Below, one piece after another: positions 1,558 through 28,887 of a stretch of DNA of 36,434 bases. Both the position numbers and the translations under genes were made by a program. The notes beneath the pieces are model-generated. The model was not told the DNA's origin and searched no databases. It saw only the letters and a program-made list of their open reading frames with translations. The stretch is from a virus: the UHGV virus genome UHGV-0123062. The stretch is one strand, 5' to 3'. Every line of letters begins with the position of its first letter. Position 1 is the first letter of the stretch.

Positions 1558-2079
1558 ATGCGGGACTTCATTGCCGATAAAGAGTTATCTGACCACCAAC
1601 CACTTCAGGAAAGTGACGCACTCAGCGGATCCATTGATGCCGCCAACGACGACGAGCACGAAGAAAACAAGAAAAAGCGTTCCTACAAAAAAGGAGCGAC
1701 TTTGCGGCTGGATGGTCCGATCGCCGGGCTTTGCTCTCTGGAAAAAGGCGCGGCATATATTGGGCTAACAAAATCTGCACTGCGCGTAGCCATTCATCGC
1801 GGTCAAATGCCGGGACACAAGACGCGCACAAACCCGGAAGATGAAAACTCAGACGGAGTATGGTGGTTTAACGCCAAAGAGTGGGACAAGTTGGCTGATG
1901 AGCTACCAGAGCACGAGCCCCCAGAATGGCACAACTGGAAAAGTTACTGGACGTATGACCGCCAGAAAAGGAAGTTCTCTCCAGCTAATAAAGAAGACTG
2001 CCAGACCATTAACGGTAAGCGAGTTTATACAGGCAGAAGCTCAAAACTGGACCAACTCAGAAACAACAGAGGCAACTAA
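1558..2079 (+). CDS. Cox-like excisionase/early regulator with long acidic N-terminal extension
   Basis: ATG 1558 with AGAGGA RBS; HTH-like segment (AAYIGLTKSALRVAIHRGQMP) and a GVWWFNAKEW segment resembling the P2 Cox C-terminal part (recalled from memory, not aligned); divergent from the repressor. Confidence 0.5.
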   Translation: MRDFIADKELSDHQPLQESDALSGSIDAANDDEHEENKKKRSYKKGATLRLDGPIAGLCSLEKGAAYIGLTKSALRVAIHRGQMPGHKTRTNPEDENSDGVWWFNAKEWDKLADELPEHEPPEWHNWKSYWTYDRQKRKFSPANKEDCQTINGKRVYTGRSSKLDQLRNNRGN

Positions 2080-2083
2080 TCGT

Positions 2084-2506
2084 ATGAAAACAAACACGTC
2101 AGATTTCACAATAACTATTTCAAAAAATGACCAAGCATTAATTGATAACCTGAAATACCTTGCGGAAAAACATAATAACGGACGAATTGCAATTAATTTA
2201 CGACACATCACAGGAGTAACAATTGTAACCAGTTACTGGCATCTATATCTAATCGCTAAATCAGTACTTGAAAACAAAGATTCTGTTGTCAATGGAAGAG
2301 ATATAGATACTCTTCCTGCACAAATCAAACCGATAGCCTATCAATTGCGTAATCGTTTTAAAAATGAAGGTGGGATTATATTTGACTTTCCCGCAGCTGT
2401 AGCCGTGAGCTTCTCTCGGGGGGATATACTTCACTCATTTCGTTTTGCTCTATCAGGTGACGAGACATTATGGCAGCTAGAAGATGCCGGGAGCAGCCCG
2501 GCATAA
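2084..2506 (+). CDS. Hypothetical protein, AT-rich accessory gene
   Basis: In-frame ATG at 2084 just after the cox-like stop (2077..2079); strongly AT-rich compared with flanking phage genes; the listed ORF 1841..2506 is an upstream extension overlapping the cox-like gene. Confidence 0.5.
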   Translation: MKTNTSDFTITISKNDQALIDNLKYLAEKHNNGRIAINLRHITGVTIVTSYWHLYLIAKSVLENKDSVVNGRDIDTLPAQIKPIAYQLRNRFKNEGGIIFDFPAAVAVSFSRGDILHSFRFALSGDETLWQLEDAGSSPA

Positions 2507-2512
2507 ATCAAA

Positions 2513-2704
2513 TTAAAAATCAACCAGTTGTGTGACAGGTGGGTATTTACGCTGAATTTTGTCAGTTACTAACGCCAGTAATATATGAATCTCTGTGTTT
2601 AATGCGTCTTTATCACCCGTCGTTTTTACCCTGGGAGGGTTAATGTTATCCAGAGCAGCACTAAGTTCACTCAACAAATTAACAACTTTTTTATCTTCTG
2701 ACAT
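2513..2704 (-). CDS. Hypothetical small protein (63 aa), convergent with 2084..2506
   Basis: AT-rich ORF on the minus strand, 7 bp from the stop of the upstream gene. Confidence 0.35.
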   Translation of the reverse strand: MSEDKKVVNLLSELSAALDNINPPRVKTTGDKDALNTEIHILLALVTDKIQRKYPPVTQLVDF

Positions 2705-2841
2705 GAAAACCTCTTAACAATTTAATTAAACATAAGCCAGGACCTGAACCGGCCAGTCCAAGTCCTAGACACACAAAAAAAATACCACAAATCAATACAA
2801 GGTGACACGAGTACACCTTACCGAAGGTACAGAGTTTTAAT

Positions 2842-3192
2842 ATGAAACTACAGCGCAATTCTTCACAGCAGCGCTTCCGCAACGGTGCGGAACGCCATGC
2901 TAACCGTTTCGCTACCAGTGCATCACGTAGCAACTCTCGCTACAGCCTGAGCGAAACACACGCAACGCCGGATGGCTACCCAGTAAAACAAATTGGTGAA
3001 CACACTTGGCTGATTGAAAAAGCAGGAATCGTGGTTCACAGATGCCAGCGCAACCCATTTACCGGAAACCGCATTTTTGCACTGAGCAACGGCGACAATC
3101 AGTTCGGGCAGGATTTCACATTGTACGAAGCACTTCGCACAGTTGATCGTCTGCTTCGCGGACAAAGTTTTATTAAACAGGCTGATTTATAA
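2842..3192 (+). CDS. Hypothetical early-region protein
   Basis: 116-aa ORF, co-directional with the early operon. Confidence 0.45.
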   Translation: MKLQRNSSQQRFRNGAERHANRFATSASRSNSRYSLSETHATPDGYPVKQIGEHTWLIEKAGIVVHRCQRNPFTGNRIFALSNGDNQFGQDFTLYEALRTVDRLLRGQSFIKQADL

Positions 3193-3202
3193 CAGGTGCT
3201 TT

Positions 3203-3481
3203 ATGACCAAAGAGCATGCACAAGGTGTATTTATTCGTTTTATTGATTTTCGCGGTGAACTGTTATTACGCGCATCAGCTATTGATGGAGTCGTTCCATC
3301 CGAAAAAAATGCAGCTACTTACGTTTATCTGAACGGCACGCGCCTGACCGTAGAACTTCCGTACCAGACTGTACACGAAATCATTAGCGAAGCGGAAAAA
3401 GCACGTAAGACTAATGGCGATGAACCCTATATCGAAATTATTTGTATGGATTCAGAAGCAGAAATTCAGAAAGCAGATTAA
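3203..3481 (+). CDS. Hypothetical early-region protein
   Basis: ATG at 3203 inside listed ORF 3143..3481; co-directional packing. Confidence 0.45.
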   Translation: MTKEHAQGVFIRFIDFRGELLLRASAIDGVVPSEKNAATYVYLNGTRLTVELPYQTVHEIISEAEKARKTNGDEPYIEIICMDSEAEIQKAD

Positions 3482-3492
3482 AGGGCGTTGCG

Positions 3493-3735
3493 ATGGGCAA
3501 AGAATATAAAACTCTCATTAACAAAGCACTTGAGCGTTTTTATTTTCGCTTAAGTGCATCAGGCGCTCATGCTGAACGTGCAGCCCGTGACTCATTGACC
3601 AGGGCAATCCGGAGTCTGTATGACGTGGCTTTTTACGCTGATGATCTGGATGCACTTAACGAACTTTCCGAGCTGATCTGTGCCGCAGAATGCGGGGAAC
3701 ATATTGAACCGTATAAGCTGGGGAATATCGCATGA
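3493..3735 (+). CDS. Hypothetical early-region protein
   Basis: ATG at 3493 with AAGGG RBS, inside listed ORF 3442..3735. Confidence 0.45.
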   Translation: MGKEYKTLINKALERFYFRLSASGAHAERAARDSLTRAIRSLYDVAFYADDLDALNELSELICAAECGEHIEPYKLGNIA

Positions 3736-3845
3736 GTATATTTATCTCATGGCTTGTTCTGATTATTTCGGTGGCCTGCGCTATTGGAATTATGCGAATT
3801 ATTCATTCAGTAAAAAAGATTGAACGTTTTTTCACTGGTGAATAA
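3732..3845 (+). CDS. Putative small hydrophobic protein (37 aa)
   Basis: ATGA overlap with the upstream stop (translational coupling); predicted product MSIFISWLVLIISVACAIGIMRIIHSVKKIERFFTGE has a single TM-like segment; below the ORF-track size cutoff. Confidence 0.3.
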   Translation: MSIFISWLVLIISVACAIGIMRIIHSVKKIERFFTGE

Positions 3846-3938
3846 CGATACAAATAAAACATCAAATTAAATAAGAAAACGTGAAAACCATCCGTATTAA
3901 CGGAGGTATTCGCACACGCAAATAACGGAGATACAAAA

Positions 3939-4349
3939 ATGCACGCAAAAGAAGAAGGTATCATCATAGCACTGAAAGAAATTTCAAAGACAGAAAACGA
4001 AGTAGCGAAAAAAGCCATAGCAAATAATCATATGGACGTCGCAACCCACACACTGATAGTCGCAAGAGTCACGGCAGAAGCAGCCGAAATTATCGCAAAA
4101 CAGGATGCTGAACTGGCGGTTCTCAGAACACAACCCGTCACCGGACTGGATTTGTCTAACACCGGACGCCTTATTTACACAATTGGCTCGGAGCTACAGC
4201 GATACACCATTATCGCCGGGTTACAGGATAAATACCTGATCACTCCTCACCCCATAAGGGAATCAGAAATTCTGACAAATCTCCGCCTGATAGAGCGCTC
4301 TCAAGTCGCATTCATTGATGACGCACAGTGCACCGTATTTAACGCATAG
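3939..4349 (+). CDS. Hypothetical early-region protein
   Basis: 136-aa ORF with GGAG RBS; preceded by an AT-rich intergenic stretch. Confidence 0.5.
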   Translation: MHAKEEGIIIALKEISKTENEVAKKAIANNHMDVATHTLIVARVTAEAAEIIAKQDAELAVLRTQPVTGLDLSNTGRLIYTIGSELQRYTIIAGLQDKYLITPHPIRESEILTNLRLIERSQVAFIDDAQCTVFNA

Positions 4350-4372
4350 GGTTACTGGGCAAAGGGGGCGCA

Positions 4373-4576
4373 ATGGCAATTAAGCATTTTCCCGTCGTTC
4401 GCTTTACCTCCAGAGGGCGCGAATACGAGGTCGACGAACGCCTGATTACCACTATCGACAAACATCGTTCGGAAAAGGATGCACACCACATCTACCTCAC
4501 TGACGGCACTTACTTCTGCGCCACTAATGTGGCGCGGGTAAACCTTATCCGACAGGTACAGGAGCAGCGTAAATGA
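4373..4576 (+). CDS. Hypothetical protein, first gene of a four-gene coupled operon
   Basis: AAAGGGGG RBS; its stop overlaps the next start (ATGA). Confidence 0.55.
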   Translation: MAIKHFPVVRFTSRGREYEVDERLITTIDKHRSEKDAHHIYLTDGTYFCATNVARVNLIRQVQEQRK

Positions 4577-4791
4577 GCAGAAGGCGAATCACACGCAGGC
4601 ATCGCCGCACACACATGAATTCCTTACCGACGCTGAAAGAACTCATTCAACACGAGATCGCTGATTTCTGCGCAACGCTGGGGTCGCCTGGTGAACCGGA
4701 AACACCAGAAGCGATGCAGCGCGAACTCATGATGCGCATCGATAACGTTTTTGACTTTTTCCTGAATAACAAAAGAGAGCAATCAACATGA
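4573..4791 (+). CDS. Hypothetical protein with Arg-rich N-terminus, operon gene 2
   Basis: ATGA start/stop overlaps on both sides; N-terminus MSRRRITRRHRRTH. Confidence 0.5.
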   Translation: MSRRRITRRHRRTHMNSLPTLKELIQHEIADFCATLGSPGEPETPEAMQRELMMRIDNVFDFFLNNKREQST

Positions 4792-4991
4792 ACAAAAAGA
4801 CCTGGTTTCGCGCATACATGTGGGCGCTGGTATGCGTCCTCGTCTCTTTCATTCTGTATGCAGGACTACTCCCCCGAATGATTTCATCAGACAGCTCCTT
4901 CCTGGTATTGCTGGGCATTTTCATTGCCATGCTGTACCCGGCAGGCGTTGTTCGCCTTTTCAGTAAGTACATCAAGGAAATCAAGCAATGA
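4788..4991 (+). CDS. Small integral membrane protein (two predicted TM helices), operon gene 3
   Basis: Hydrophobic segments WALVCVLVSFILYAGLL and FLVLLGIFIAMLYPAGVV; ATGA coupling on both sides. Confidence 0.55.
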   Translation: MNKKTWFRAYMWALVCVLVSFILYAGLLPRMISSDSSFLVLLGIFIAMLYPAGVVRLFSKYIKEIKQ

Positions 4992-5818
4992 AGAAATTCA
5001 AACTCTTTCAGATTCTCCCGCTTTTTGCCGCCATCCTGCTGGTTGGTTGCGATCGCGTTGAGCCAGGTAATGTGGGAATCAAAGTCAACAAACTGGGCGA
5101 CGACAAAGGCGTCGGCGAAGTAGTTGGCGTTGGCCGCTACTGGACAGGCTGGAATACAGAGGTTTACATCTTCCCGACTTTCAAACAAATGAAGACTTAC
5201 GATGAGCCGTTCAACTTCCAGATGAGTGACGGCACAACCATCGGCTATCACATCGGCGTGGCCTACAAAGTTGATCCATCCAAAGTTACCACGGTGTTTC
5301 AGACCTACCGCAAAGGCGTGGACGACATTACCGACACTGACCTGCGCCAGAAGATCGCCGACGCACTCAACCGACTGGCCAGCAAAATGACCACCGATAA
5401 ATTTATCGACGGTGGCAAGTCTGAACTGCTGGATTCAGCACTTAAAGACATTCAGGCAGAAATGACACCTATCGGCATTCAGGTAATGAGCCTCTCTTAT
5501 GTGGGTAAGCCGGAATACCCACCAACCGTTATCGACAGCATTAATGCCAAAGTCACGGCAAACCAGAAAACCCTGCAACGTGAACAGGAAGTCAAGCAAC
5601 GCGAAGCTGAAGCCAACATGCTGCGCGCAGAAGCTGCCGGACAAGCCGATGCCATTCGCACAAAAGCCCAGGCTGAAGCCGACGCCATTCGTTTACGCGG
5701 TGAAGCTCTGCGCCAGAATCCCGGCGTTATGGAGCTGGAAGCAATCAACAAATGGAACGGCACGCTGCCGCAATACATGACCAGCAACACCGCTGTTCCG
5801 TTTGTTCCGGTGAAGTAA
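4988..5818 (+). CDS. SPFH/band-7 (stomatin/prohibitin-like) lipoprotein
   Basis: Lipoprotein signal with lipobox (LLVGC); central region consistent with an SPFH domain; C-terminal Ala/Glu/Arg-rich coiled-coil-like segment (REAEANMLRAEAAGQADAIRTKAQAEADAIRLRGEALR). Confidence 0.65.
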   Translation: MKKFKLFQILPLFAAILLVGCDRVEPGNVGIKVNKLGDDKGVGEVVGVGRYWTGWNTEVYIFPTFKQMKTYDEPFNFQMSDGTTIGYHIGVAYKVDPSKVTTVFQTYRKGVDDITDTDLRQKIADALNRLASKMTTDKFIDGGKSELLDSALKDIQAEMTPIGIQVMSLSYVGKPEYPPTVIDSINAKVTANQKTLQREQEVKQREAEANMLRAEAAGQADAIRTKAQAEADAIRLRGEALRQNPGVMELEAINKWNGTLPQYMTSNTAVPFVPVK

Positions 5819-9760: not shown

Positions 9761-10720
9761 ATGAAAATTTGTATCGACGACGGCTCCACCAACATCAAGC
9801 TGGCATGGACTGAGAACGGCGAACGCCGCAACGCCATCAGCCCGAACAGCTTCAAGTCGGAATGGTCTGCGCCGTTCGGTGGCACGCAGCCCGCGAACTA
9901 CATGCTTGATGGCGTGCGCTATGGTTTTGATCCGGTCAGCGATCGCTTTGTCCAGACGACCGACACGCAATACCAGTACAGCGATGTGAATGTAATTGCC
10001 ATTCATCACGCGCTGGTCAAATCAGGCATCACACCACAGGAAGTGGATGTGGTTGTCACCCTGCCACTGAGCGAGTATTTCGACACAAACGCACAGCCGG
10101 ACATGGCCAACATCAACCGCAAAAAAGCGAACGTTATGCGCCCGGTGGAGTACCAGAACGGCGAAGCATTCACTATCCGTAACGTGCGGGTTATGCCTGA
10201 ATCCATTCCGGCTGGCTTTAAGGCACTGGCTGACATGAGTCCGTTTGAATCCCTGCTGATTGTGGATTTAGGCGGAACCACGCTGGATGTGGCAAAGGTT
10301 CAGGGACAACTGGCAGGTATCAGCCAGGTGTTTTGCGATCCACACGTAGGCGTTTCCCTGATGTCCGATGCCGTACTGTCGGTGATGGCCACTAACGGTA
10401 TGCGTACCAGTCACCACATCGCCAATACCATTATCGAACATCGCCATGATGAAGCCTGGCTGCGCCAGCACATCCACAATGACGCGCATTACGCCAGCCT
10501 GATGGCGGTTATTCGTGAAAAGGAAGAAACACTGAAACAACGCGTGATCCGCGCGCTGGCGGGTTTTTCGGGTTACGGGCGGGTGATGATTGTCGGTGGC
10601 GGGGCAGAAATTGTGGCACCCGCTATCCGCGAAGCCTGCGGAGTTAATGCGACTTTCATCGCGGACGGGGTGCCACAGTTTGCTCTGGTTAATGGGCTGT
10701 ACGCAATGGACAAGGAGTAA
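9761..10720 (+). CDS. parM: ParM/StbA-family actin-like partition ATPase
   Basis: N-terminal phosphate-1 motif (ICIDDGSTNIKLAW), ISPNSFK, YSDVNVIAIHHAL, VMPESIPAG, LIVDLGGTTLD and IVGGGAE match my recollection of plasmid R1 ParM along the whole length; AAGGA RBS. Confidence 0.85.
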   Translation: MKICIDDGSTNIKLAWTENGERRNAISPNSFKSEWSAPFGGTQPANYMLDGVRYGFDPVSDRFVQTTDTQYQYSDVNVIAIHHALVKSGITPQEVDVVVTLPLSEYFDTNAQPDMANINRKKANVMRPVEYQNGEAFTIRNVRVMPESIPAGFKALADMSPFESLLIVDLGGTTLDVAKVQGQLAGISQVFCDPHVGVSLMSDAVLSVMATNGMRTSHHIANTIIEHRHDEAWLRQHIHNDAHYASLMAVIREKEETLKQRVIRALAGFSGYGRVMIVGGGAEIVAPAIREACGVNATFIADGVPQFALVNGLYAMDKE

Positions 10721-10724
10721 ACCA

Positions 10725-11036
10725 ATGACGACACCAACCAGACGGATAAGTTTCTATCTGAAGCCCGCCGCCGTCAAGAACGAAGGCGAAGCATGCGCCT
10801 GGCTGGACAGCCTTACACCAGAAGCCCGCAAAAGTGGTCAACGCGTGGCTTTTCTGGCCGGGCTGGCACTACTGAAAATGAATCCGGCAGAGGCTTACCG
10901 ACTGGCTGCATGGGCTGATGATGAGGCGTTATCAATGACACAAACCAGGACAGAACGCCCCGCGTCACAGCCAGTATCAACCGCACAGATAACCAGTCAG
11001 ATGGCCGGAAATATCCGGGCGTTATTTCCCGAATAA
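10725..11036 (+). CDS. parR: ParR-like ribbon-helix-helix partition adaptor
   Basis: Immediately downstream of parM with AAGGAG RBS; N-terminal beta-strand segment (RRISFYLKP), FLAGLALL and C-terminal NIRALFPE resemble R1 ParR as recalled; start trimmed to ATG 10725 inside listed ORF 10590..11036. Confidence 0.65.
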   Translation: MTTPTRRISFYLKPAAVKNEGEACAWLDSLTPEARKSGQRVAFLAGLALLKMNPAEAYRLAAWADDEALSMTQTRTERPASQPVSTAQITSQMAGNIRALFPE

Positions 11037-11099: not shown

Positions 11100-11744
11100 A
11101 TGCAACACATTGACAGAGAAAAAGCGCAGCGACTGATTGAGCGGATGGAAGCGCTGGCGAAAGAAGAAAATGTCAACATCCAAAAAATAGCTGAATGTGG
11201 CCAGATAGTTCTTCGTCGTGAAAAAGACCTCAAACAACTGATGTCTGGCGAAACCAGCAAAACATGGACTTCAGGCGAGAAGACGGTTTATTGCAGCTTC
11301 TGCAATAAATCCCAGTACGAAGTCACAAAGGTGATTGCCGGACCGTCTGTTTACATCTGCAATGAGTGCGTGGATTTGTGCAATGAAATTATCAGGAAAG
11401 AAGTGACAGACAAAAAGGAAAAAAAACGCATGAACAGAAAACAGAAACAAGAGTTGAAATACTTCTTACGTAAAGAAATTGCCAGGCTTGAAGATGCAGA
11501 GTCACAATCATCAGAAATTCCGTTCGGAATGGATATCAACGACGCCCGTATGCTCCAGGCATACCGCATAGCTCAGGCTGCACTACAGGCAAAACCGTCA
11601 GATGGACTGGTTAGAGCAGTACATTTCTATGAACAGGTAAAGCGTGAGAATCCGCCAGTCGAAACTGGAGTATGGAAAGACGCTATTGACTGGGTGACCA
11701 AAGAGGCTTGCCAAGCTGTAGACATTGGCATCAAAGGAGAGTGA
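11100..11744 (+). CDS. ClpX zinc-binding-domain (ZBD) mimic protein
   Basis: Residues ~64-100 ([39 protein letters not shown]) closely match the C4 zinc-ribbon of the ClpX N-terminal domain as I recall it from E. coli ClpX; no AAA+ ATPase module follows; flanking regions are unrelated to ClpX. Confidence 0.75.
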
Positions 11745-18827: not shown

Positions 18828-19027
18828 TGAAAGTGAAGGCACTGGAAGGCGACACCGTGGATTCGCTCTGTTTCCGGTACTACGGCACGACACAGGGCGT
18901 CACCGAAAAGGTGCTGGATGCCAACCCCGGACTCTGTCAGCAGGTATTTCTGGACGCCGGGCAGGAAGTGGAGATGCCGGAGCCGGAGAAGAAGAAACGA
19001 GAAATGATTCAGTTGTGGGGGGAGTAG
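18827..19027 (+). CDS. X: Small tail protein (P2 X-like)
   Basis: 66 aa; ATG overlaps the L stop (TGATG). Confidence 0.7.
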   Translation: MKVKALEGDTVDSLCFRYYGTTQGVTEKVLDANPGLCQQVFLDAGQEVEMPEPEKKKREMIQLWGE

Positions 19028-19029
19028 CA

Positions 19030-19353
19030 GTGAGCACCATTCAAACAGGGATCACAGAGCAGGTTATTGCGTGGCTCTTTGACCACCTGCCAACGGTGTA
19101 TGCAGTAGGCGCGGCGGTCAGCATTTCCGCGCTGATGAGTCTTTATGACGGACGAACACTGGTTCAGACCGTAACGGGATCGCTGGCGTGCGGCGTTCTT
19201 GCCATGGCCGTGGCCGGGTCGCTGCGCTTCTTCGGGATCCCTGAGGATGCAGTGACGTTTTTTGGTGCCTCAATCGGTTTTATGGGCGCAGAGAAAGCAC
19301 GCGACAAGGTTATTGCAATATTTGATCGCAGGGTGAAGGAGAGGAACGAATGA
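19030..19353 (+). CDS. Holin
   Basis: GTG start with GGGGGAG RBS; three hydrophobic TM-like segments; immediately upstream of the endolysin with an overlapping stop. Confidence 0.65.
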   Translation: MSTIQTGITEQVIAWLFDHLPTVYAVGAAVSISALMSLYDGRTLVQTVTGSLACGVLAMAVAGSLRFFGIPEDAVTFFGASIGFMGAEKARDKVIAIFDRRVKERNE

Positions 19354-19742
19354 GCAACACATTTAAATTCAGCAGCCGGAGCGAAAAGAATTTGCAGGGT
19401 GTAAATCCTGATCTGGTGAAAGTGACCCGACGGGCGCTGGAAATCTCGGAAGTGGATTTTGGTATCACCGAAGGATTGCGCAGTCGTTATCGTCAGAAGC
19501 AGCTCGTGACCACAGGCAAGAGCCAGACCATGAACAGTCGCCATCTCACAGGGCATGCCGTGGATGTTGTGGCTTATGTCGGCAACCAGGTGTCATGGGA
19601 ATGGCCGCTGTACGAAAAAATCGCAGCAGCATTCAGACAGGCCAGCCAGGAACTGAATATTCCGGTGGAATGGGGCGGCGACTGGAAGACCCTGAAAGAC
19701 GGACCGCATTTTCAGTTACCACACGGAGCCTATCCGGCATGA
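19350..19742 (+). CDS. Endolysin, peptidase M15-type
   Basis: 130 aa with SRHLTGHAVDV and EWGGDW motifs of M15 zinc peptidases; GAAGGAGAGG RBS. Confidence 0.8.
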   Translation: MSNTFKFSSRSEKNLQGVNPDLVKVTRRALEISEVDFGITEGLRSRYRQKQLVTTGKSQTMNSRHLTGHAVDVVAYVGNQVSWEWPLYEKIAAAFRQASQELNIPVEWGGDWKTLKDGPHFQLPHGAYPA

Positions 19743-20134
19743 AGCTCTGGCCCACGCTTGGCGTCGCTTTCCTTCTGATTACATCCATGCGTCTGTCGTG
19801 GTCGCTGGGCCGGGAGAACGCCAGAAACGAAGCGCAGGCCAGCACCCTGAAAAGTACCGTCGACACACTGAATATCATCAGCGCCGGGGTACAGGATATG
19901 CAGCAGGTGCTGGCTCAGCTCCGCGCGGAAAATCAGCAACGCAATCAGGACGGAGAGGTAAGACGTGAACAGCTACGCAACGATATTGCAAAAGATGAAT
20001 GCGCCCACGCTTTGCCTGACGCTCGTTTTACTGACAGGTTGCGCAGGCACGCAGAACGCGCCAGGGCCAGCGCCGTCAGTCCGGCTTATACCGCAGACGC
20101 TGACCATGCCGGTAACGCCTCCCCCCTTCCCTGA
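19739..20134 (+). CDS. lysB: i-spanin (Rz / LysB-like)
   Basis: N-terminal TM segment (LWPTLGVAFLLITS), charged coiled-coil-like middle; ATGA overlap with the endolysin. Confidence 0.65.
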   Translation: MKLWPTLGVAFLLITSMRLSWSLGRENARNEAQASTLKSTVDTLNIISAGVQDMQQVLAQLRAENQQRNQDGEVRREQLRNDIAKDECAHALPDARFTDRLRRHAERARASAVSPAYTADADHAGNASPLP

Positions 20135-20276
20135 CCCACCCACATGGGGAAACCTCGGAATATGGGGCGACCGCCTTCTGGATGCACTGGAAACCTGTAA
20201 CGCGGATAAACGGGCCATTGCTGAACTGGATAAGAGAATAGCCGAACTGACACACCAGACGGGAGTAACACAATGA
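19995..20276 (+). CDS. lysC: o-spanin lipoprotein (Rz1 / LysC-like), embedded in +1 frame of the i-spanin gene
   Basis: Lipobox LLTGCAG, Pro-rich body; overlaps lysB out of frame; the listed ORF begins at GTG 19965. Confidence 0.6.
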   Translation: MNAPTLCLTLVLLTGCAGTQNAPGPAPSVRLIPQTLTMPVTPPPFPDPPTWGNLGIWGDRLLDALETCNADKRAIAELDKRIAELTHQTGVTQ

Positions 20277-22153
20277 CCAGTAAGAACTTTGCACTGATTA
20301 CAGCCATGACACAGGCTGAACTGACTCAAAAGGTGAATGAACATCTTGCGAAAGGGTGGCATCTTCAGGGGGAGACGCGGGTTGCCTACGAACCCGGCAC
20401 CCCGTGGTATCTAATGCAGGCAATGGTGGCCGATGGCACTACAGACATCTCACCTGATTCCCCCCAGCACGGCAGCGTGCCGGAGTGGTATTACGTGGTG
20501 GTACTTGCTGGTCAATCCAATGCCATGTCATATGGTGAGGGAATGCCGCTGCCGGATTCTTACGATGCGCCCCACCCACGCATTAAGCAACTGGCCCGTC
20601 GCAACACAGTGACTCCCGGTGGTAAAGCATGCGCATTTAACGACATCATTCCGGCAGACCACTGCCTGCATGATGTTCAGGATATGAGCGCACTGAATCA
20701 TCCGAAGGCAGACCTGAGCAAAGGGCAGTACGGCTGTGTCGGCCAGGGCTTACATATTGCCAAAAAACTGCTTCCGTATATCCCGAATAACGCGGGGATC
20801 CTGCTGGTACCATGCTGTCGTGGTGGTTCGGCATTCACCCAGGGCGCGGAGGGGACATTCAGTGCGGACACGGGGGCCAGCCAGGATTCGGCACGCTGGG
20901 GTGTGGGTAAACCGTTATATCAGGACCTGATCGCACGCACCAAAGCGGCATTACAGAAGAACCCGAAAAATGTGTTGCTGGCGGTGTGCTGGATGCAGGG
21001 CGAATTTGACATGAGCGCTGCCACCTACGCACAGCAACCGGACCTGTTCACGGCCATGCTGAAGCAGTTCCGTACTGACCTTTCCGGATTTAACGCGCAG
21101 TGCCATGGCGGCAGTGCTGCAGTTGTACCGTGGATTTGTGGCGACACGACGTATTACTGGAAAAACACATACGGCACACAGTATGACTCCGTCTACGGCG
21201 CGTACAAAAACAGGGAGAGCGACAACGTTTTCTTTGTGCCGTTCATGACCGACGGTAACGGCAACAACACGCCCACCAACTTACCGGCAGAAGACCCGGA
21301 TATTGCTGATGCAGGTTATTACGGCGCGCAATCCCGTAGTAATGGTAATTGGGTATCATCAAACCGCCCGACACATTTCAGTTCATGGGCGCGCAGGAGC
21401 ATTATTCCGGATCGTATGGCAACCGCTATTCTGAACGCAGCCGGGCGCACCTCAGCCTTCATCAGTGGTAAGGCACCGGAAATCAAACCCTCGCCCGGCG
21501 GCGACACTCCATCGGGGCCGTCTGATGGTGACACATCCGTTCATACAGTCTCCCTGCTGCCGACAGCCGGAGAGGCTGCTGCGCAGGGCTGGACCATCAC
21601 CGGCGGCAGTGTTGCGCTGGAAGATGGTGTGTTTAAGGTTACCAAGCAGAGCAATAAAACCTGGTCCCTGATGCATCCGGTGGATGACGCAGTCTCCCTG
21701 CTGACACGGGGTGGCAGACTGAGCTGTAAGTTTCGACTGTCAGGCGCACTGACCAACAACCAGTTCGGTCTGGGAATTTATCTGTATACCGATGTAGCGT
21801 TACCTGACGTCGTGGCGATGACCGGGACTGGTAACCCGTTCCTGATGTCGTTCTTCACCCAGACCACAGGCGGCAAACTGAATCTGATGCATCACAAGAA
21901 AGCCGGAAACACAAAGTTGGGCGAGTTCGGGAATTACAGTAACGACTGGCAGACGCTGGAGCTGGTGTTCACCGCCGGCAGTGCCACGGTTACTCCGAAA
22001 CTGAATGGAGTGGCTGGCCCGGCATTCCAGGTCATAAAAGACAGTCTGACACTGGGGCTGAATGCGCTGACGTTAACTGATATCACTAAAAATGCCGCGT
22101 ACGGCGTCGATATCGGCAGCCTGGTGCTGGAAATCAATAATCCCGCAGCATAA
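20273..22153 (+). CDS. NanS-p-like SGNH/SASA esterase with N-terminal DUF1737-like region and C-terminal beta-sandwich-like domain
   Basis: 626 aa; GQSNAMS catalytic-serine motif as in sialate O-acetylesterases; Pro/Gly-rich linker (PEIKPSPGGDTPSGPSDGD); inserted between lysis genes and R. Confidence 0.7.
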   Translation: MTSKNFALITAMTQAELTQKVNEHLAKGWHLQGETRVAYEPGTPWYLMQAMVADGTTDISPDSPQHGSVPEWYYVVVLAGQSNAMSYGEGMPLPDSYDAPHPRIKQLARRNTVTPGGKACAFNDIIPADHCLHDVQDMSALNHPKADLSKGQYGCVGQGLHIAKKLLPYIPNNAGILLVPCCRGGSAFTQGAEGTFSADTGASQDSARWGVGKPLYQDLIARTKAALQKNPKNVLLAVCWMQGEFDMSAATYAQQPDLFTAMLKQFRTDLSGFNAQCHGGSAAVVPWICGDTTYYWKNTYGTQYDSVYGAYKNRESDNVFFVPFMTDGNGNNTPTNLPAEDPDIADAGYYGAQSRSNGNWVSSNRPTHFSSWARRSIIPDRMATAILNAAGRTSAFISGKAPEIKPSPGGDTPSGPSDGDTSVHTVSLLPTAGEAAAQGWTITGGSVALEDGVFKVTKQSNKTWSLMHPVDDAVSLLTRGGRLSCKFRLSGALTNNQFGLGIYLYTDVALPDVVAMTGTGNPFLMSFFTQTTGGKLNLMHHKKAGNTKLGEFGNYSNDWQTLELVFTAGSATVTPKLNGVAGPAFQVIKDSLTLGLNALTLTDITKNAAYGVDIGSLVLEINNPAA

Positions 22154-22176
22154 GGAAGAGCAGGAGAGCAAAACAG

Positions 22177-22644
22177 ATGCTTAAGACAAACAGTCTGCGA
22201 GAGTCCATGCTTCATGGGTGTCGGTGGTGCCAGGCTAATCCCGAGAAATTCACCATTTTCGTGGAGAGCGGCAACATTGAAACGACCGGGGAAACGCCCT
22301 CGTTTGTTTACCGCTATCAGATGGTGATGTTTGTCATGGATTACGCCGGAGAGCTGGACGACCTCACGCTGCCGCTGCTGGCGTGGTTATCCGAAAATCA
22401 GCCACAGTTGTTGCTCAACCCTGAGCGTAATCAGGACATCAAATTCTCCGCCGTTATCAATGACGATGACAGCGCCGATCTCCTGTTTACGCTCCCCCTG
22501 CGGGAACGCGTTCGCGTCACGCGCAGCAGTCAGGGCACACCGCAGGCAGAACACCTGCCAGAGCCAAAACCCCGCCTGCCATCTTCCGAAGGCGACTGGT
22601 CGCATATATTCCAGGATGTGACGTGGGGTGAAAGCGATGGATAA
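22177..22644 (+). CDS. R: Tail completion protein (P2 R-like)
   Basis: 155 aa; position before S. Confidence 0.8.
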   Translation: MLKTNSLRESMLHGCRWCQANPEKFTIFVESGNIETTGETPSFVYRYQMVMFVMDYAGELDDLTLPLLAWLSENQPQLLLNPERNQDIKFSAVINDDDSADLLFTLPLRERVRVTRSSQGTPQAEHLPEPKPRLPSSEGDWSHIFQDVTWGESDG

Positions 22645-23272
22645 GGCATTCACCCGCGTGGATGAAACCTTTGAGGCCATCCGCGACAGCCTGAATCAGC
22701 AGGCCATCAATAACATCGCCAGAAAGCTGGCACAGGATTTACGTCGCGCCCAGCAGGCACGTATCCGGTCACAGAAAGCGCCGGACGGGACCGCATGGAC
22801 ACCACGCAGACGCCGCGTAACCCGGATACAGGAGCGCATTCGCTTTATCTGGAATAACGAAGCACGCACGCTGAAAAACTGGCATCACGACACGGGGAAA
22901 TACGGGCGAACCATTACCGGGTGGGATGAGGATAAAAACAGCATCCGCACGTTTTACCGGGATGACATCGACCGTTTTCTGGAAATACGCACCCGGCGCA
23001 TCAACCAGGACAGCACAAAGCGCGTCCCCATGTTCGTAAAACTGCGCACCGCCCGCTACCTGAAAGCCCGTGCAGATGCCTCCGGTGTGACGGTGGGTTA
23101 CAGCGGCGTGGCCGCACGTATTGCACGCGTTCATCAGTTCGGTGAGCGCGATCAGGTTGCGCCGGGCATTTTCACCGATTACCCGGTACGTGAGCTGCTG
23201 GGTATCAGCCAGGCAGATGAGCGCCTGATTTATAACACGGTGCTGGGCCGGATTGCGGAGGCTGTACGGTGA
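22637..23272 (+). CDS. S: Tail completion protein (P2 S-like)
   Basis: ATG 22637 overlaps the R stop; listed ORF starts at GTG 22628. Confidence 0.8.
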   Translation: MDKAFTRVDETFEAIRDSLNQQAINNIARKLAQDLRRAQQARIRSQKAPDGTAWTPRRRRVTRIQERIRFIWNNEARTLKNWHHDTGKYGRTITGWDEDKNSIRTFYRDDIDRFLEIRTRRINQDSTKRVPMFVKLRTARYLKARADASGVTVGYSGVAARIARVHQFGERDQVAPGIFTDYPVRELLGISQADERLIYNTVLGRIAEAVR

Positions 23273-25097: not shown

Positions 25098-25698
25098 TTC
25101 GTTGTTACCCCCATCAGCCAGCAATTTCATGCGTTGTGCCGAAGCCGTCGGAACACGCATTACAGACATTCCGGTAGACCTCAACACGTTGTGGTCGCCG
25201 GACACCTGCCCGGTGCATCTGCTGCCTTATCTCGCCTGGGCGTTTTCCGTTGACCGCTGGGATCGCAACTGGCCGGAAGAGACAAAGCGACAGGTGATTC
25301 GTGATGCATGGCTGATACACCGACACAAAGGGACCATCAGCGCACTGCGAAGAGCCGTGGAGCCTCTCGGCTACCTGATTGAAGTAAAGGAGTGGTGGCA
25401 ACTCAATGAGGAGCCTGGGACATTTCGCATTGTTGTCGGAGTACTTGATCAGGGCATCACCGATGAAATGCATCAGGAACTTGAACGCCTTATTGCGGAT
25501 GCAAAACCAGTAAGTCGCCATCTGACAGGGCTGGCGATCAGTCTGAGTGTGAACGGAAAGATTTTCGTTGGTACGGGATGCTATCACGGCGATGCCCTGA
25601 CGGTTTACCCCTACACCCCGGAGTCCATTATTGTCGAAGGGGATTATTTCCCTGCCCCGGCCATTCATTTAATTGATAATCTGAGAGTAAACGCATGA
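25090..25698 (+). CDS. I: Baseplate protein (P2 I-like)
   Basis: ATG 25090 overlapping the J 3' end. Confidence 0.85.
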   Translation: MSNSLLPPSASNFMRCAEAVGTRITDIPVDLNTLWSPDTCPVHLLPYLAWAFSVDRWDRNWPEETKRQVIRDAWLIHRHKGTISALRRAVEPLGYLIEVKEWWQLNEEPGTFRIVVGVLDQGITDEMHQELERLIADAKPVSRHLTGLAISLSVNGKIFVGTGCYHGDALTVYPYTPESIIVEGDYFPAPAIHLIDNLRVNA

Positions 25699-27122
25699 CA
25701 ATGAAATACTACGCCATTCTGACTAATCAGGGCGCGGCACGACTGGCTAACGCGACGATGCTCGGCAGTAAGCTGAATCTGACGCAAATGGCCGTTGGTG
25801 ATGCAAATGGTGTGTTACCAACACCAAACCCTGCACAAACAAAACTGATTAACCAGAAACGCATTGCACCGCTGAATCTTCTGAGTGTTGACCCTAACAA
25901 TCAGAGCCAGATTATTGCGGAGCAAATCATCCCTGAAGACGAGGGAGGATTCTGGATCCGTGAGATTGGTCTTTATGATGATAAAGGTGTACTCATTGCG
26001 GTGGCAAACTGCCCGGAAACGTACAAACCGCAGTTGCAGGAAGGCAGTGGACGCACCCAGACTATCCGCATGATTCTGGTTGTCACGAACACCAAAGCCA
26101 TCACGCTGAAAATCGACCCGTCTGTGGTTCTGGCAACCCGCAAATATGTGGATGATAAAATCTCAAAGCACGAGCAGTCACGACGTCACCCGGACGCCTC
26201 GCTGACCGCAAAAGGCTTTGTTCAACTTAGCAGCACCACCAACAGCACCTCTGAAACGCTGGCCGCAACACCGAAAGCGGTTAAGGCTGCATATGACCTG
26301 GCTAACGGGAAATATACCGCTCAGGATGCGACTACGGCACGAAAAGGCCTTGTTCAACTCAGTAGCGCCACCAACAGCACCTCTGAAACGCTGGCCGCAA
26401 CACCGAAAGCGGTTAAGGCTGCATATGACCTGGCTAACGGGAAACAACCGGCAGATGCCACGCTCACTGCTCTGGCAGGACTTGCCACTGCAGCAGATCG
26501 GTTGCCTTATTTTACCGGAGCAGACCGCGCAGCGCTGGCAACCCTTACAGCTATTGGTCGCGCTATTATCGCTAAGGGCAGTATAAAAGATGTCCTCAAT
26601 TACCTTGGTTTAGGAGAAGGCTCGGCGCTACCCGTTGGTGTGCCTGTTCCGTGGCCCACCGCCACACCGCCAGCAGGCTGGTTAAAGTGCGACGGGCGCG
26701 CCTTTACAAAAGAACAATATCCTGTTCTGGCCAGAGCCTACCCGACCCTCCGTCTTCCCGATTTACGCGGTGAGTTTATCCGTGGATGGGACGACGGGCG
26801 CAAAGTTGATACAGGACGTAAGTTGCTGTCCGCACAAGGGGCAACGCTGTTAAGAACAGCAATGCTGGATTATTATAACCAGGACACTACGGGAACCTCG
26901 GGGATAGTCGGCATGGGATTCAACAATGAAGATTCCATTACAGACCTTCGTGAGGGCAGCTTTAAAATGCCGGACGGGACAACATTCAGCGATCCTGTCA
27001 TAGCAATGTCAGACAATGGTATGCAGGCTACTATTCTGACCTCTATCAGAAGCGGGTATGCGAAGGGTATCACTGTCAGACCCCGTAGCATTGCACTTAA
27101 TTACATTGTGAGGGCAGTTTAA
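25695..27122 (+). CDS. H: Tail fibre protein (P2 H-like), C-terminal part inside the invertible segment
   Basis: 475 aa; N-terminal constant region, two 44-aa tandem repeats, C-terminal receptor-binding part whose upstream end is duplicated in inverted orientation at ~27995..28221. Confidence 0.9.
   Translation: MTMKYYAILTNQGAARLANATMLGSKLNLTQMAVGDANGVLPTPNPAQTKLINQKRIAPLNLLSVDPNNQSQIIAEQIIPEDEGGFWIREIGLYDDKGVLIAVANCPETYKPQLQEGSGRTQTIRMILVVTNTKAITLKIDPSVVLATRKYVDDKISKHEQSRRHPDASLTAKGFVQLSSTTNSTSETLAATPKAVKAAYDLANGKYTAQDATTARKGLVQLSSATNSTSETLAATPKAVKAAYDLANGKQPADATLTALAGLATAADRLPYFTGADRAALATLTAIGRAIIAKGSIKDVLNYLGLGEGSALPVGVPVPWPTATPPAGWLKCDGRAFTKEQYPVLARAYPTLRLPDLRGEFIRGWDDGRKVDTGRKLLSAQGATLLRTAMLDYYNQDTTGTSGIVGMGFNNEDSITDLREGSFKMPDGTTFSDPVIAMSDNGMQATILTSIRSGYAKGITVRPRSIALNYIVRAV
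26208..26471 (+). repeat. Tandem direct repeat, 2 x 132 bp, inside tail fibre gene H
   Basis: Near-identical 132-bp units encoding KG(F/L)VQLSS(T/A)TNSTSETLAATPKAVKAAYDLANGK; period measured between the ctgaaacgct landmarks (26251 and 26383). Confidence 0.9.
26605..26831 (+). repeat. Left inverted repeat of the invertible segment (~227 bp)
   Basis: Encodes LGLGEGSALPVGVPVPWPTATPPAGWLKCDGR...GRKLLS, which reappears in the minus-strand cassette. Confidence 0.8.
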
Positions 27123-27742: not shown

Positions 27743-28221
27743 TCACGCCGCCCTCACGATATAGTTAAACGCGATATTGCGGGGGCGGGTTATGTTAAAG
27801 AATGCTCCGTTTAATTCGGCTTTTGCGCGACTGTTTGTTCCACCCAGCATTGCGTACCACAAATAATCGCTACGGTAATTCCCCGCAAACACCTTATCGC
27901 CGCCATAGTCAATATTATTTCCGTTACTCATGTACGAGATATCAAGCGCAGAATCGTTATCGTCATGACCGCCGACCAGTGTACCTTTCTGCCATGAAAG
28001 CAACTTACGCCCCTCGTCAATCTTGCGCCCGTCGTCCCATCCACGGATAAACTCACCGCGTAAATCGGGAAGACGGAGGGTCGGGTAGACTCTGGCCAGA
28101 ACAGGATATTGTTCTTTTGTAAAGGTGCGCCCGTCGCACTTTAACCAGCCTGCTGGCGGTGTGGCAGTGGGCCACGGAACAGGTACACCAACGGGCAGCG
28201 CCGAGCCTTCCCCCAAACCAA
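27743..28221 (-). CDS. Alternative tail-fibre C-terminal cassette (promoterless, would fuse to constant H on inversion)
   Basis: Minus-strand reading frame shares the 66-aa junction segment with H then diverges to a different C-terminus ending NYIVRAA; the listed ORF 27743..28273 has no credible independent start. Confidence 0.65.
27995..28221 (-). repeat. Right inverted repeat of the invertible segment (~227 bp)
   Basis: Reverse complement encodes the same ~66-aa segment with a few substitutions. Confidence 0.8.
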
Positions 28222-28287
28222 CGTTTTCGTTTTTATCCCTACCTATACCAACTCTGTATTTTTCACGAAACAAAGAGGATGTTTTTT

Positions 28288-28887
28288 ATGCAAATTGGCT
28301 ATATTCGTGTGTCAACAAACGACCAGAACACGGATTTACAACGCAATGCACTGAACTGCGCAGGATGTGAACTGATTTTTGAAGATAAAATCAGCGGAAC
28401 GAAATCAACCAGACCGGGATTGAAAAAACTGCTCAGAACGCTATCAGAAGGAGATACGCTGGTTGTCTGGAAGCTGGACAGACTGGGCAGAAGTATGAAA
28501 CACCTGATCACGCTTATTGAGGAATTGCGGGAAAAAGGTGTTAATTTCCGTAGTCTGACGGACAGCATTGACACGTCAACACCCATGGGGCGTTTCTTTT
28601 TTCACGTCATGGGGGCTTTAGCCGAAATGGAACGTGAATTAATTGTAGAACGTACACTGGCCGGGCTGGCAGCAGCACGCGCACAAGGACGCATTGGCGG
28701 ACGTCGCCCGAAGTTGACAAAAGAACAACACGAGCAAATAGCGAGGCTGATTAAAAACGGTCATGACAGGAAACAACTGGCGATCATTTACGACATCGGC
28801 ATATCGACGATTTATCGTTATCACCCTGTAGGCGATATACAGGCTGAAGAAACAACCAGGCAGACTCAGGAAAATGAAAACCGCTAA
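28288..28887 (+). CDS. Serine DNA invertase (Hin/Gin/Cin/Pin family)
   Basis: N-terminus MQIGYIRVSTNDQNTDLQRNAL with catalytic Ser motif; C-terminal HTH; GAGG RBS; start trimmed to ATG 28288. Confidence 0.9.
   Translation: MQIGYIRVSTNDQNTDLQRNALNCAGCELIFEDKISGTKSTRPGLKKLLRTLSEGDTLVVWKLDRLGRSMKHLITLIEELREKGVNFRSLTDSIDTSTPMGRFFFHVMGALAEMERELIVERTLAGLAAARAQGRIGGRRPKLTKEQHEQIARLIKNGHDRKQLAIIYDIGISTIYRYHPVGDIQAEETTRQTQENENR

Follow-up and report, generated by a model that had tools for sequence, protein, structure and literature searches.

A NanS-p-type sialate O-acetylesterase gene in the late operon of a P88-like Escherichia coli prophage and its mosaic relation to Stx-phage alleles

NanS-p enzymes let pathogenic Escherichia coli use the O-acetylated sialic acids of gut mucus, and almost all discussion of them has concerned lambdoid Stx phages as their carriers. 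Chromosomal NanS (YjhS) is a single-domain protein of ~326 amino acids (aa) that lacks both DUF1737 and a lectin domain; it is reported to have a signal peptide and is exported to the periplasm. The lambdoid phage-borne forms (L0105/Z1466 of 933W, vb_24B_21 or gp84 of phi24B, and the Stx1a-phage alleles) share the domain order DUF1737, SASA and DUF6645, and their genes follow stx/Q and precede the lysis genes. A review treats lambdoid nanS-p as a late gene induced along with stx, and esterase activity has been reported for alleles of O104:H4 and EDL933 (PMC8065619). The same review describes the five nanS-p alleles of the O104:H4 strain as prophage-encoded active esterases that are needed for growth on 5-N-acetyl-9-O-acetylneuraminic acid (Neu5,9Ac2). 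Here we analyse a gene of this type in UHGV virus genome UHGV-0123062, a stretch of 36,434 nucleotides (nt) called the window below, which we assign to the P88-like (Xuanwuvirus, Peduoviridae) prophages of E. coli.

The gene belongs to a known enzyme family, its arrangement is common in sequenced E. coli, and a near-identical allele occurs in a strain in which the family was studied. What appears to be new, in a modest way, is a P2-specific class of DUF1737, its fixed slot in two P2-like clades and a Mu-like variant, together with clear evidence from sequence comparison that only the esterase and lectin part has been traded with lambdoid phages.

The gene is present exactly as the initial annotation, made from the letters alone, had described it: an open reading frame (ORF) of 626 aa at 20273-22153 on the plus strand. 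It is organised as follows.

20273..22153, plus strand: the complete nanS-p-type gene, with an ATG start, 626 aa and the stop TAA at 22151-22153 (ORF listing, Pfam, PHROGs and Protein Data Bank (PDB) matches)
20282..20431, plus strand: DUF1737 module (PF08410), aa 4-53, a P2-type 'long-loop' variant (..VAYEPGTPWYLMQAMV..)
20432..20479, plus strand: linker 1, DGTTDISPDSPQHGSV, aa 54-69; homology to the lambdoid allele begins directly after it (DNA alignment, per-domain identities)
20480..21457, plus strand: SASA/SGNH esterase domain, aa 70-395 (match to PDB 3pt5, motifs)
21458..21562, plus strand: Pro/Gly/Ser-rich linker 2, FISGKAPEIKPSPGGDTPSGPSDGDTS..., aa ~396-430, with a predicted local distance difference test (pLDDT) score <50
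21563..22150, plus strand: C-terminal lectin-like beta-sandwich, a putative carbohydrate-binding module, aa 431-626 (DUF6645)

Domain annotation with Pfam, which the initial annotation had proposed as a check, found DUF1737, SASA and DUF6645 in that order, each above its curated cutoff, and phrog_143, a family of unknown function, is an end-to-end match among the PHROGs. DUF1737, with E=3.3e-7 and 30.5 bits (cutoff 24), is of a divergent subtype, and the best SASA stretch covers aa 75-271. In a search of solved structures, aa 69-388 match the crystal structure of E. coli NanS/YjhS (3pt5) with E=3.8e-122; the two catalytic domains can be aligned over 320 residues at ~65% identity, and the window protein additionally has DUF1737 at its N-terminal end. 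The GQSNAMS motif named earlier as the site of the catalytic serine does occupy aa 80-86 (GQSNA at 80-84, with Ser82), and the other active-site blocks are RGGSAF at 183-188, MQGEFD at 241-246 and THFS at 367-370, which contains His368. The blocks described for 3PT5 read GQSNA, RGGSAF, MQGEFD and SHFS (PMC10792757). The window protein keeps all four of them (Blocks I, II, III and V) unchanged or almost so, and the catalytic serine keeps its place in the alignment. We regard the gene as a full-length, intact member of the known NanS-p sialate O-acetylesterase family.

Beyond the Pro/Gly-rich linker, which had likewise been read correctly, the proposed C-terminal beta-sandwich is borne out by three comparisons. 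DUF6645 (PF20350) matches aa 477-587 with E=1.9e-19, the C-terminal domain of phi24B NanS-p (6yp6) matches aa 431-623 with E=3.1e-30, and an AlphaFold model built on a 22-sequence alignment predicts a beta-sandwich here with pLDDT ~90. The same model gives the N-terminal module a strand-helix-strand-strand arrangement at pLDDT 72-83. The initial annotation had staked its reading on an SGNH/SASA fold emerging from structure prediction, and Foldseek with the full-length model returned 6yp6 (TM score 0.85) and 3pt5 (E=6e-22) as its top two matches, followed by lectin domains. The first of these, ahead of L-type lectins, was the sialic-acid-binding lectin domain of the Vibrio cholerae sialidase 2w68 (E=4.6e-9), a match that we assigned to the C-terminal domain (21563-22150) by its length and fold. 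As far as the model goes, this hints at sialoglycan binding by the C-terminal module.

The gene sits in a P2-type late operon with the order gpL, gpX, holin, M15 endolysin, LysB, LysC, NanS-p, gpR, gpS, gpV (Pfam, PHROGs). Its nearest neighbours are these.

19024-19353, plus strand: holin (PHROG/Pfam)
19350-19742, plus strand: M15 endolysin (PHROG/Pfam)
19739-20134, plus strand: LysB/i-spanin (PHROG/Pfam)
19965..20276, plus strand: lysC, the o-spanin gene (Pfam LysC, E=1.6e-13), with the stop TGA at 20274-20276
22177-22644, plus strand: tail completion gene R (Pfam P2_Phage_GpR)
22628-23272, plus strand: tail completion gene S (Pfam Phage_tail_S)

As had been claimed, the start of nanS-p (ATG, 20273-20275) overlaps the lysC stop, the two codons forming the tetranucleotide ATGA, and a Shine-Dalgarno sequence, GGGAG, lies upstream at 20261-20265. 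A 23-nt spacer with AGGAG at 22162-22166 separates the nanS-p stop from the start of R. A scan of 15-26 kb found no terminator-like sites flanking nanS-p or between nanS-p and R. The counts of promoter- and terminator-like sites in this region do not exceed those of shuffled controls, none of the sites isolates nanS-p, and the sole promoter-like match near the gene (20247-20274) overlaps its start codon. The GC content of nanS-p, 0.55-0.57, equals that of its flanks. Without a promoter or terminator of its own above chance, without a GC anomaly and with ATGA coupling to lysC, the gene is not the 'moron' of the initial annotation in the strict sense; accessory gene embedded in the late operon describes it better. 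Because of this coupling and the absence of a terminator, we strongly infer that it is co-expressed late with the lysis and tail genes. Window and lambdoid nanS-p genes are alike in being prophage-borne and located in late-transcribed regions, but differ in position, the former following lysC and the latter preceding the lysis genes.

The initial annotation had further stated that the gene occupies a junction at which P2-type phages pass directly from the spanins to R. This holds: P88 and at least 12 relatives lack the gene and match the flanks of the window in two pieces, these flanks being ~96% identical to P88-like phages. Homology to P88 stops at 20220 and resumes at 22219 (blastn), which delimits one further feature.

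20221..22218, plus strand: segment of 1,998 bp standing where the empty P88-type site has 93 bp (window-to-P88 blastn, alignment)

Besides nanS-p, the exchanged block holds the 3' end of lysC (~18 codons) and the 5' end of R (14 codons), and the filled site looks like the product of homologous replacement between P2-like relatives and not of a clean insertion. To place the arrangement among E. coli, 5,426 complete genomes were surveyed with probes for the filled (lysC-nanS-p-R) and the empty site (the junction), requiring at least 80% probe coverage. The filled arrangement occurs in 373 genomes, ~7% of the total, and is therefore common rather than rare; the empty site occurs in 689, so that roughly a third of P88-like prophages carry nanS-p. 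E. coli TUM13770 has the same arrangement between dmsA and serS. Among the carriers are MS8345, extra-intestinal human isolates and the O104:H4 outbreak strain C227-11, whose P88-like prophage encodes a NanS-p in the same slot and backbone as the window, only a few substitutions apart (WP_000202135.1, locus AAF13_RS08490, 98.5% nt and 99% aa identity, annotated 'DUF6645 domain-containing protein').

Exchange between phage types, also suggested in the initial annotation, is supported: the esterase and lectin part is shared with an Stx1a-phage allele, but the gene as a whole has made no simple hop, its DUF1737 module being P2-specific. The nearest lambdoid allele, that of Stx1a phage 11KH263, shows ~90% nt identity to the window from codon ~68 (PEWYY) to the stop, with long near-identical stretches, while the first ~65 codons can barely be aligned. 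Per-domain identities among 28 distinct nanS-p alleles sort the N-terminal modules into two classes, lambdoid and P2, with 29-36% identity between them and a 4-aa loop insertion in the window module. The remaining domains cross this divide. At the protein level the SASA domain of the Stx1a-phage allele is 90% identical to that of the window, within the 84-100% range of P88-like alleles, and its C-terminal domain 85%; for a 933W-type allele the corresponding values are 69% and 33%. Conversely, some P88-like alleles are nearer to the Stx1a-phage allele than to the window in their C-terminal domain, L020 with 95% identity to the former and only 84% to the latter. These identities indicate that esterase and lectin segments have been traded between phage types, the probable route being gene conversion between multiple nanS-p genes within a single genome. 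The N-terminal module stays with its backbone.

How tightly the N-terminal module is bound to P2-like phages was seen in several collections. A tblastn search with aa 1-69 against 50,697 phage records matched three P88-like myovirus records and nothing else, with zero matches among ~350 lambdoid NanS-p genes. A search for homologous proteins with this 69-aa module gave near-identical fragments only, an exhaustive HMMER search gave 10 matches, and the GTDB species-representative genomes contained no match to it. Scans of metagenome and IMG/VR contigs recovered the P2-type module in 54 loci, every one of them in a P2-like context and with the gene order Q-P-O-N-M-L-X-holin-endolysin-LysB-LysC-NanS-p-R-S-V-W-J-I kept. 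The 54 loci represent two backbones. In the P88-like one the capsid protein is 93-95% identical to that of the window; in the second clade it is ~61% identical, the endolysin is of the lysozyme type instead of M15, and megablast found no match to any deposited phage in the phage collection. NanS-p of this clade measures 642-656 aa and starts 3 nt after lysC. Relative to the window, its N-terminal modules are 52-65% and its SASA domains 66-76% identical, while the C-terminal domains differ: some are nearest to the 933W type (~51%, against ~35% to the window) and others fit no sampled allele well. Since the same slot is occupied in two divergent P2-like clades, the position after lysC is an established home for the gene and not a one-off capture. 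The second clade is represented by loci L023-L030 and L057-L063 (for instance L028, 8001-9971), and NCBI lists a similar protein, P0055, under E. coli.

Most copies are intact (34 of the 41 loci that could be judged), and seven are truncated or internally deleted. Codons with synonymous-only differences outnumber those with nonsynonymous differences in each of the comparisons made (57:27, 74:43, 62:45 and 58:28), which is consistent with purifying selection on nanS-p. The P88-like alleles L045 (5019..) and L050 (7182..) encode 286 aa, the SASA domain being deleted and the N-terminal module joined directly to a remnant of the C-terminal domain. In P0024 (752 aa, from an NCBI genome) NanS-p, as far as ..LGLNALT, runs on in frame into the C-terminal portion of the tail-fibre protein (window 25695-27122), which implies that this prophage has lost everything from R to the 5' part of the fibre gene inclusive. 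A further 13 of the 54 loci run off their contig within nanS-p, as do the phage 'partial genome' records ON470623.1 and ON470599.1; likely, several similar copies per genome break short-read assemblies at this point.

The esterase and lectin unit is also found on a third kind of backbone. Mu-like E. coli prophages encode a 682-aa protein with SASA and DUF6645 but without DUF1737 (P0121; L070/L071, 10001-12049). Like the window gene it is prophage-borne, and its esterase and lectin parts are 59% identical to those of the window over 89% of the query. Its N-terminus is an unrelated module of ~125 aa that has no Pfam match, and the gene sits between the tail-fibre invertase and com/mom.

We consider it quite probable that the window gene encodes a NanS-p sialate O-acetylesterase that is expressed from the late operon, released with the burst and supplies sialic acid to sibling lysogens. 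In the proposed mechanism Ser82 would act as the nucleophile and His368 as the base, with a SASA-type oxyanion hole contributed by Gln81 and the MQGE motif. The SASA domain would take 9-O- (probably also 7/8-O-) acetyl groups off sialic acids, for instance Neu5,9Ac2 on mucin glycans, and the C-terminal lectin-like beta-sandwich probably keeps the enzyme on these glycans. As DUF1737 stands in place of the signal peptide of NanS, the protein should remain cytoplasmic until phage lysis. The gene is coupled to lysC and lies between the lysis genes and R/S with no terminator, so the enzyme would appear only once the P2-type late operon has been switched on. It would be set free with the burst, although it may first be tethered to virions, and the de-acetylated sialic acid could then be used by surviving sibling lysogens.

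Several points weigh against this proposal. The AlphaFold model is poor in the SASA core (pLDDT <50 at aa 56-187), and the SGNH fold is for this reason supported by homology to the crystal structure 3pt5 and not by the model itself. Upstream of gene O, a reading by eye showed no exact copy of the late-promoter dyad of P2 (TGT-N12-ACA). The P2-like C227-11 allele is only a candidate for one of the five alleles reported to be active in the O104:H4 strain (PMC8065619). Finally, a benefit to sibling cells would be a population-level argument.

The tethering just mentioned leads to a reading that is compatible with release at lysis and that we regard as a genuine, if minority, possibility: DUF1737, perhaps as a hexamer, could dock NanS-p on the hexons of the P2-type capsid, where the esterase and lectin would serve adherence to or passage through mucus, and the P2-specific DUF1737 variant would be an adaptation to the gpN capsid. 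The analogy comes from phi24B, where cryo-electron microscopy and proteomics revealed that the DUF1737 of gp84 binds the capsid, forming a hexamer in the central hexons of a T=9 shell with a Tyr42 'tooth', and that the esterase is later cleaved off (bioRxiv 10.64898/2026.04.10.717836). The window module is predicted to have the same helix and three strands, and in the alignment its aromatic residues W45 and Y46 fall opposite the Tyr41/42 region, though its loop is 4 aa longer and identity only ~30%. We found no DUF1737 structure in the PDB.

The distribution of N-terminal modules bears on the same question, and it was examined by comparing N-terminal subtype and head module in 160 IMG/VR loci. 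Classes of N-terminus do track backbones: the P2 type is on P2-like phages in 54 of 54 loci, the Mu-like protein has a different N-terminus, and of 17 loci with a Trav-type N-terminus 16 have a Traversvirus head module and one a Pankowvirus module. The Tyr42, Gly54 and SISSP features described for phi24B gp84 recur in a Traversvirus allele. The esterase and lectin domains, by contrast, are shuffled across backbones. Moreover, DUF1737 of Traversvirus and of Pankowvirus alleles is alike in its helix half and different in its tooth-loop half, and BLASTP detects no relation between the capsid proteins of these two groups, nor between either of them and P2 gpN. A fourth subtype of DUF1737, again lambdoid (..PYGGPFSSYTDDGAALIQAIV..; IMG/VR L208-L220), was found in 4 loci with a second lambda-like head variant (gpA-terminase and portal). 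The association is not one-to-one, however, for the K type (ITPYTLMQ) occurs in 12 loci with Pankowvirus heads and in 17 with the unrelated lambda-like gpA/gpB/gpC heads. A strict rule of one N-terminal subtype per capsid type, which we also considered, is ruled out by this subtype.

Three further considerations argue against docking on the capsid. Linkage alone predicts that the N-terminus follows the backbone, because recombination is possible only inside the shared esterase region. The standalone DUF1737 relatives P0015, P0016 and P0018 lie on short contigs or in an early-gene region, not in structural modules, and these contexts tell nothing about a structural role. P2 capsids, in turn, are T=7 and are not known to have a flat face-centre hexon of the T=9 type. 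It is only to the flat face-centre hexons of the T=9 capsid that the phi24B domain binds (bioRxiv 10.64898/2026.04.10.717836). A wider version of the idea, which we hold to be unlikely though worth stating, would make NanS-p proteins modular virion-display enzymes in which a shared esterase and lectin cargo is combined with backbone-specific N-terminal anchors: at least three lambdoid DUF1737 subtypes, the long-loop DUF1737 of P2-like phages, by which the window variant would dock onto a P2-type T=7 capsid, and the unrelated Mu-like module. If true, E. coli phages of podo-, sipho- and myovirus form would all display one and the same mucus-directed enzyme.

It is considerably less probable that the enzyme acts on the bacterial surface, stripping O-acetyl groups from the host O-antigen or from an O-acetylated sialic-acid capsule such as K1 and thereby aiding adsorption or blocking re-adsorption to lysed cells. 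This possibility has been raised for NanS-p (PMC8065619), and it would suit both the presumed expression with virion genes and the human extra-intestinal isolates among the P88-like carriers. Yet Pfam found no tail-fibre or baseplate attachment domain, the position of the gene varies by backbone and is not consistently beside fibre genes, and the catalytic domain shows ~65% identity to that of NanS, which serves the catabolism of free and mucin sialic acids. It is very improbable that the gene is no longer functional and persists as a decaying passenger of recombination: the truncated or deleted loci, among them the two that have lost SASA, and the in-frame tail-fibre fusion would fit it, but of the seven truncated copies three come from metagenome contigs of low coverage, the window copy retains its full length and all its catalytic blocks, and most copies elsewhere are intact and show a synonymous excess.

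The locus shows enzymes of the NanS-p family to be routine passengers of P2-like prophages too, and the mobile nanS-p gene pool reaches beyond lambdoid phages. Surveys of nanS-p copy number should include the P2-like genes, which in RefSeq carry the label 'DUF6645 domain-containing protein'. The backbone-specific N-terminal module offers a testable handle on virion display, as recently demonstrated for phi24B.

The window contains further features away from the late operon. In its early region lies a stretch low in GC (0.41-0.45 at 2000-4500) with ORFs that have no Pfam match, followed by a protein with an SPFH/Band-7 domain at 4988-5818, the whole spanning 2000-5818. At 9761-11036 the gene for an actin-like segregation ATPase, ParM (Pfam E=1.8e-82), has a small partner immediately to its downstream side, a pair annotated in relatives as plasmid partition genes. 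Between these partition genes and the portal gene, at 11100-11744, a 214-aa protein carries a ClpX-type C4 zinc finger (E=9.6e-18). Finally, a serine invertase (Resolvase and HTH_7) at 28159-28887 adjoins an opposite tail-collar-domain ORF at 27743-28273 on the minus strand, and the region 27743-28887 looks like an invertible tail-fibre switch of the Gin/Cin type.

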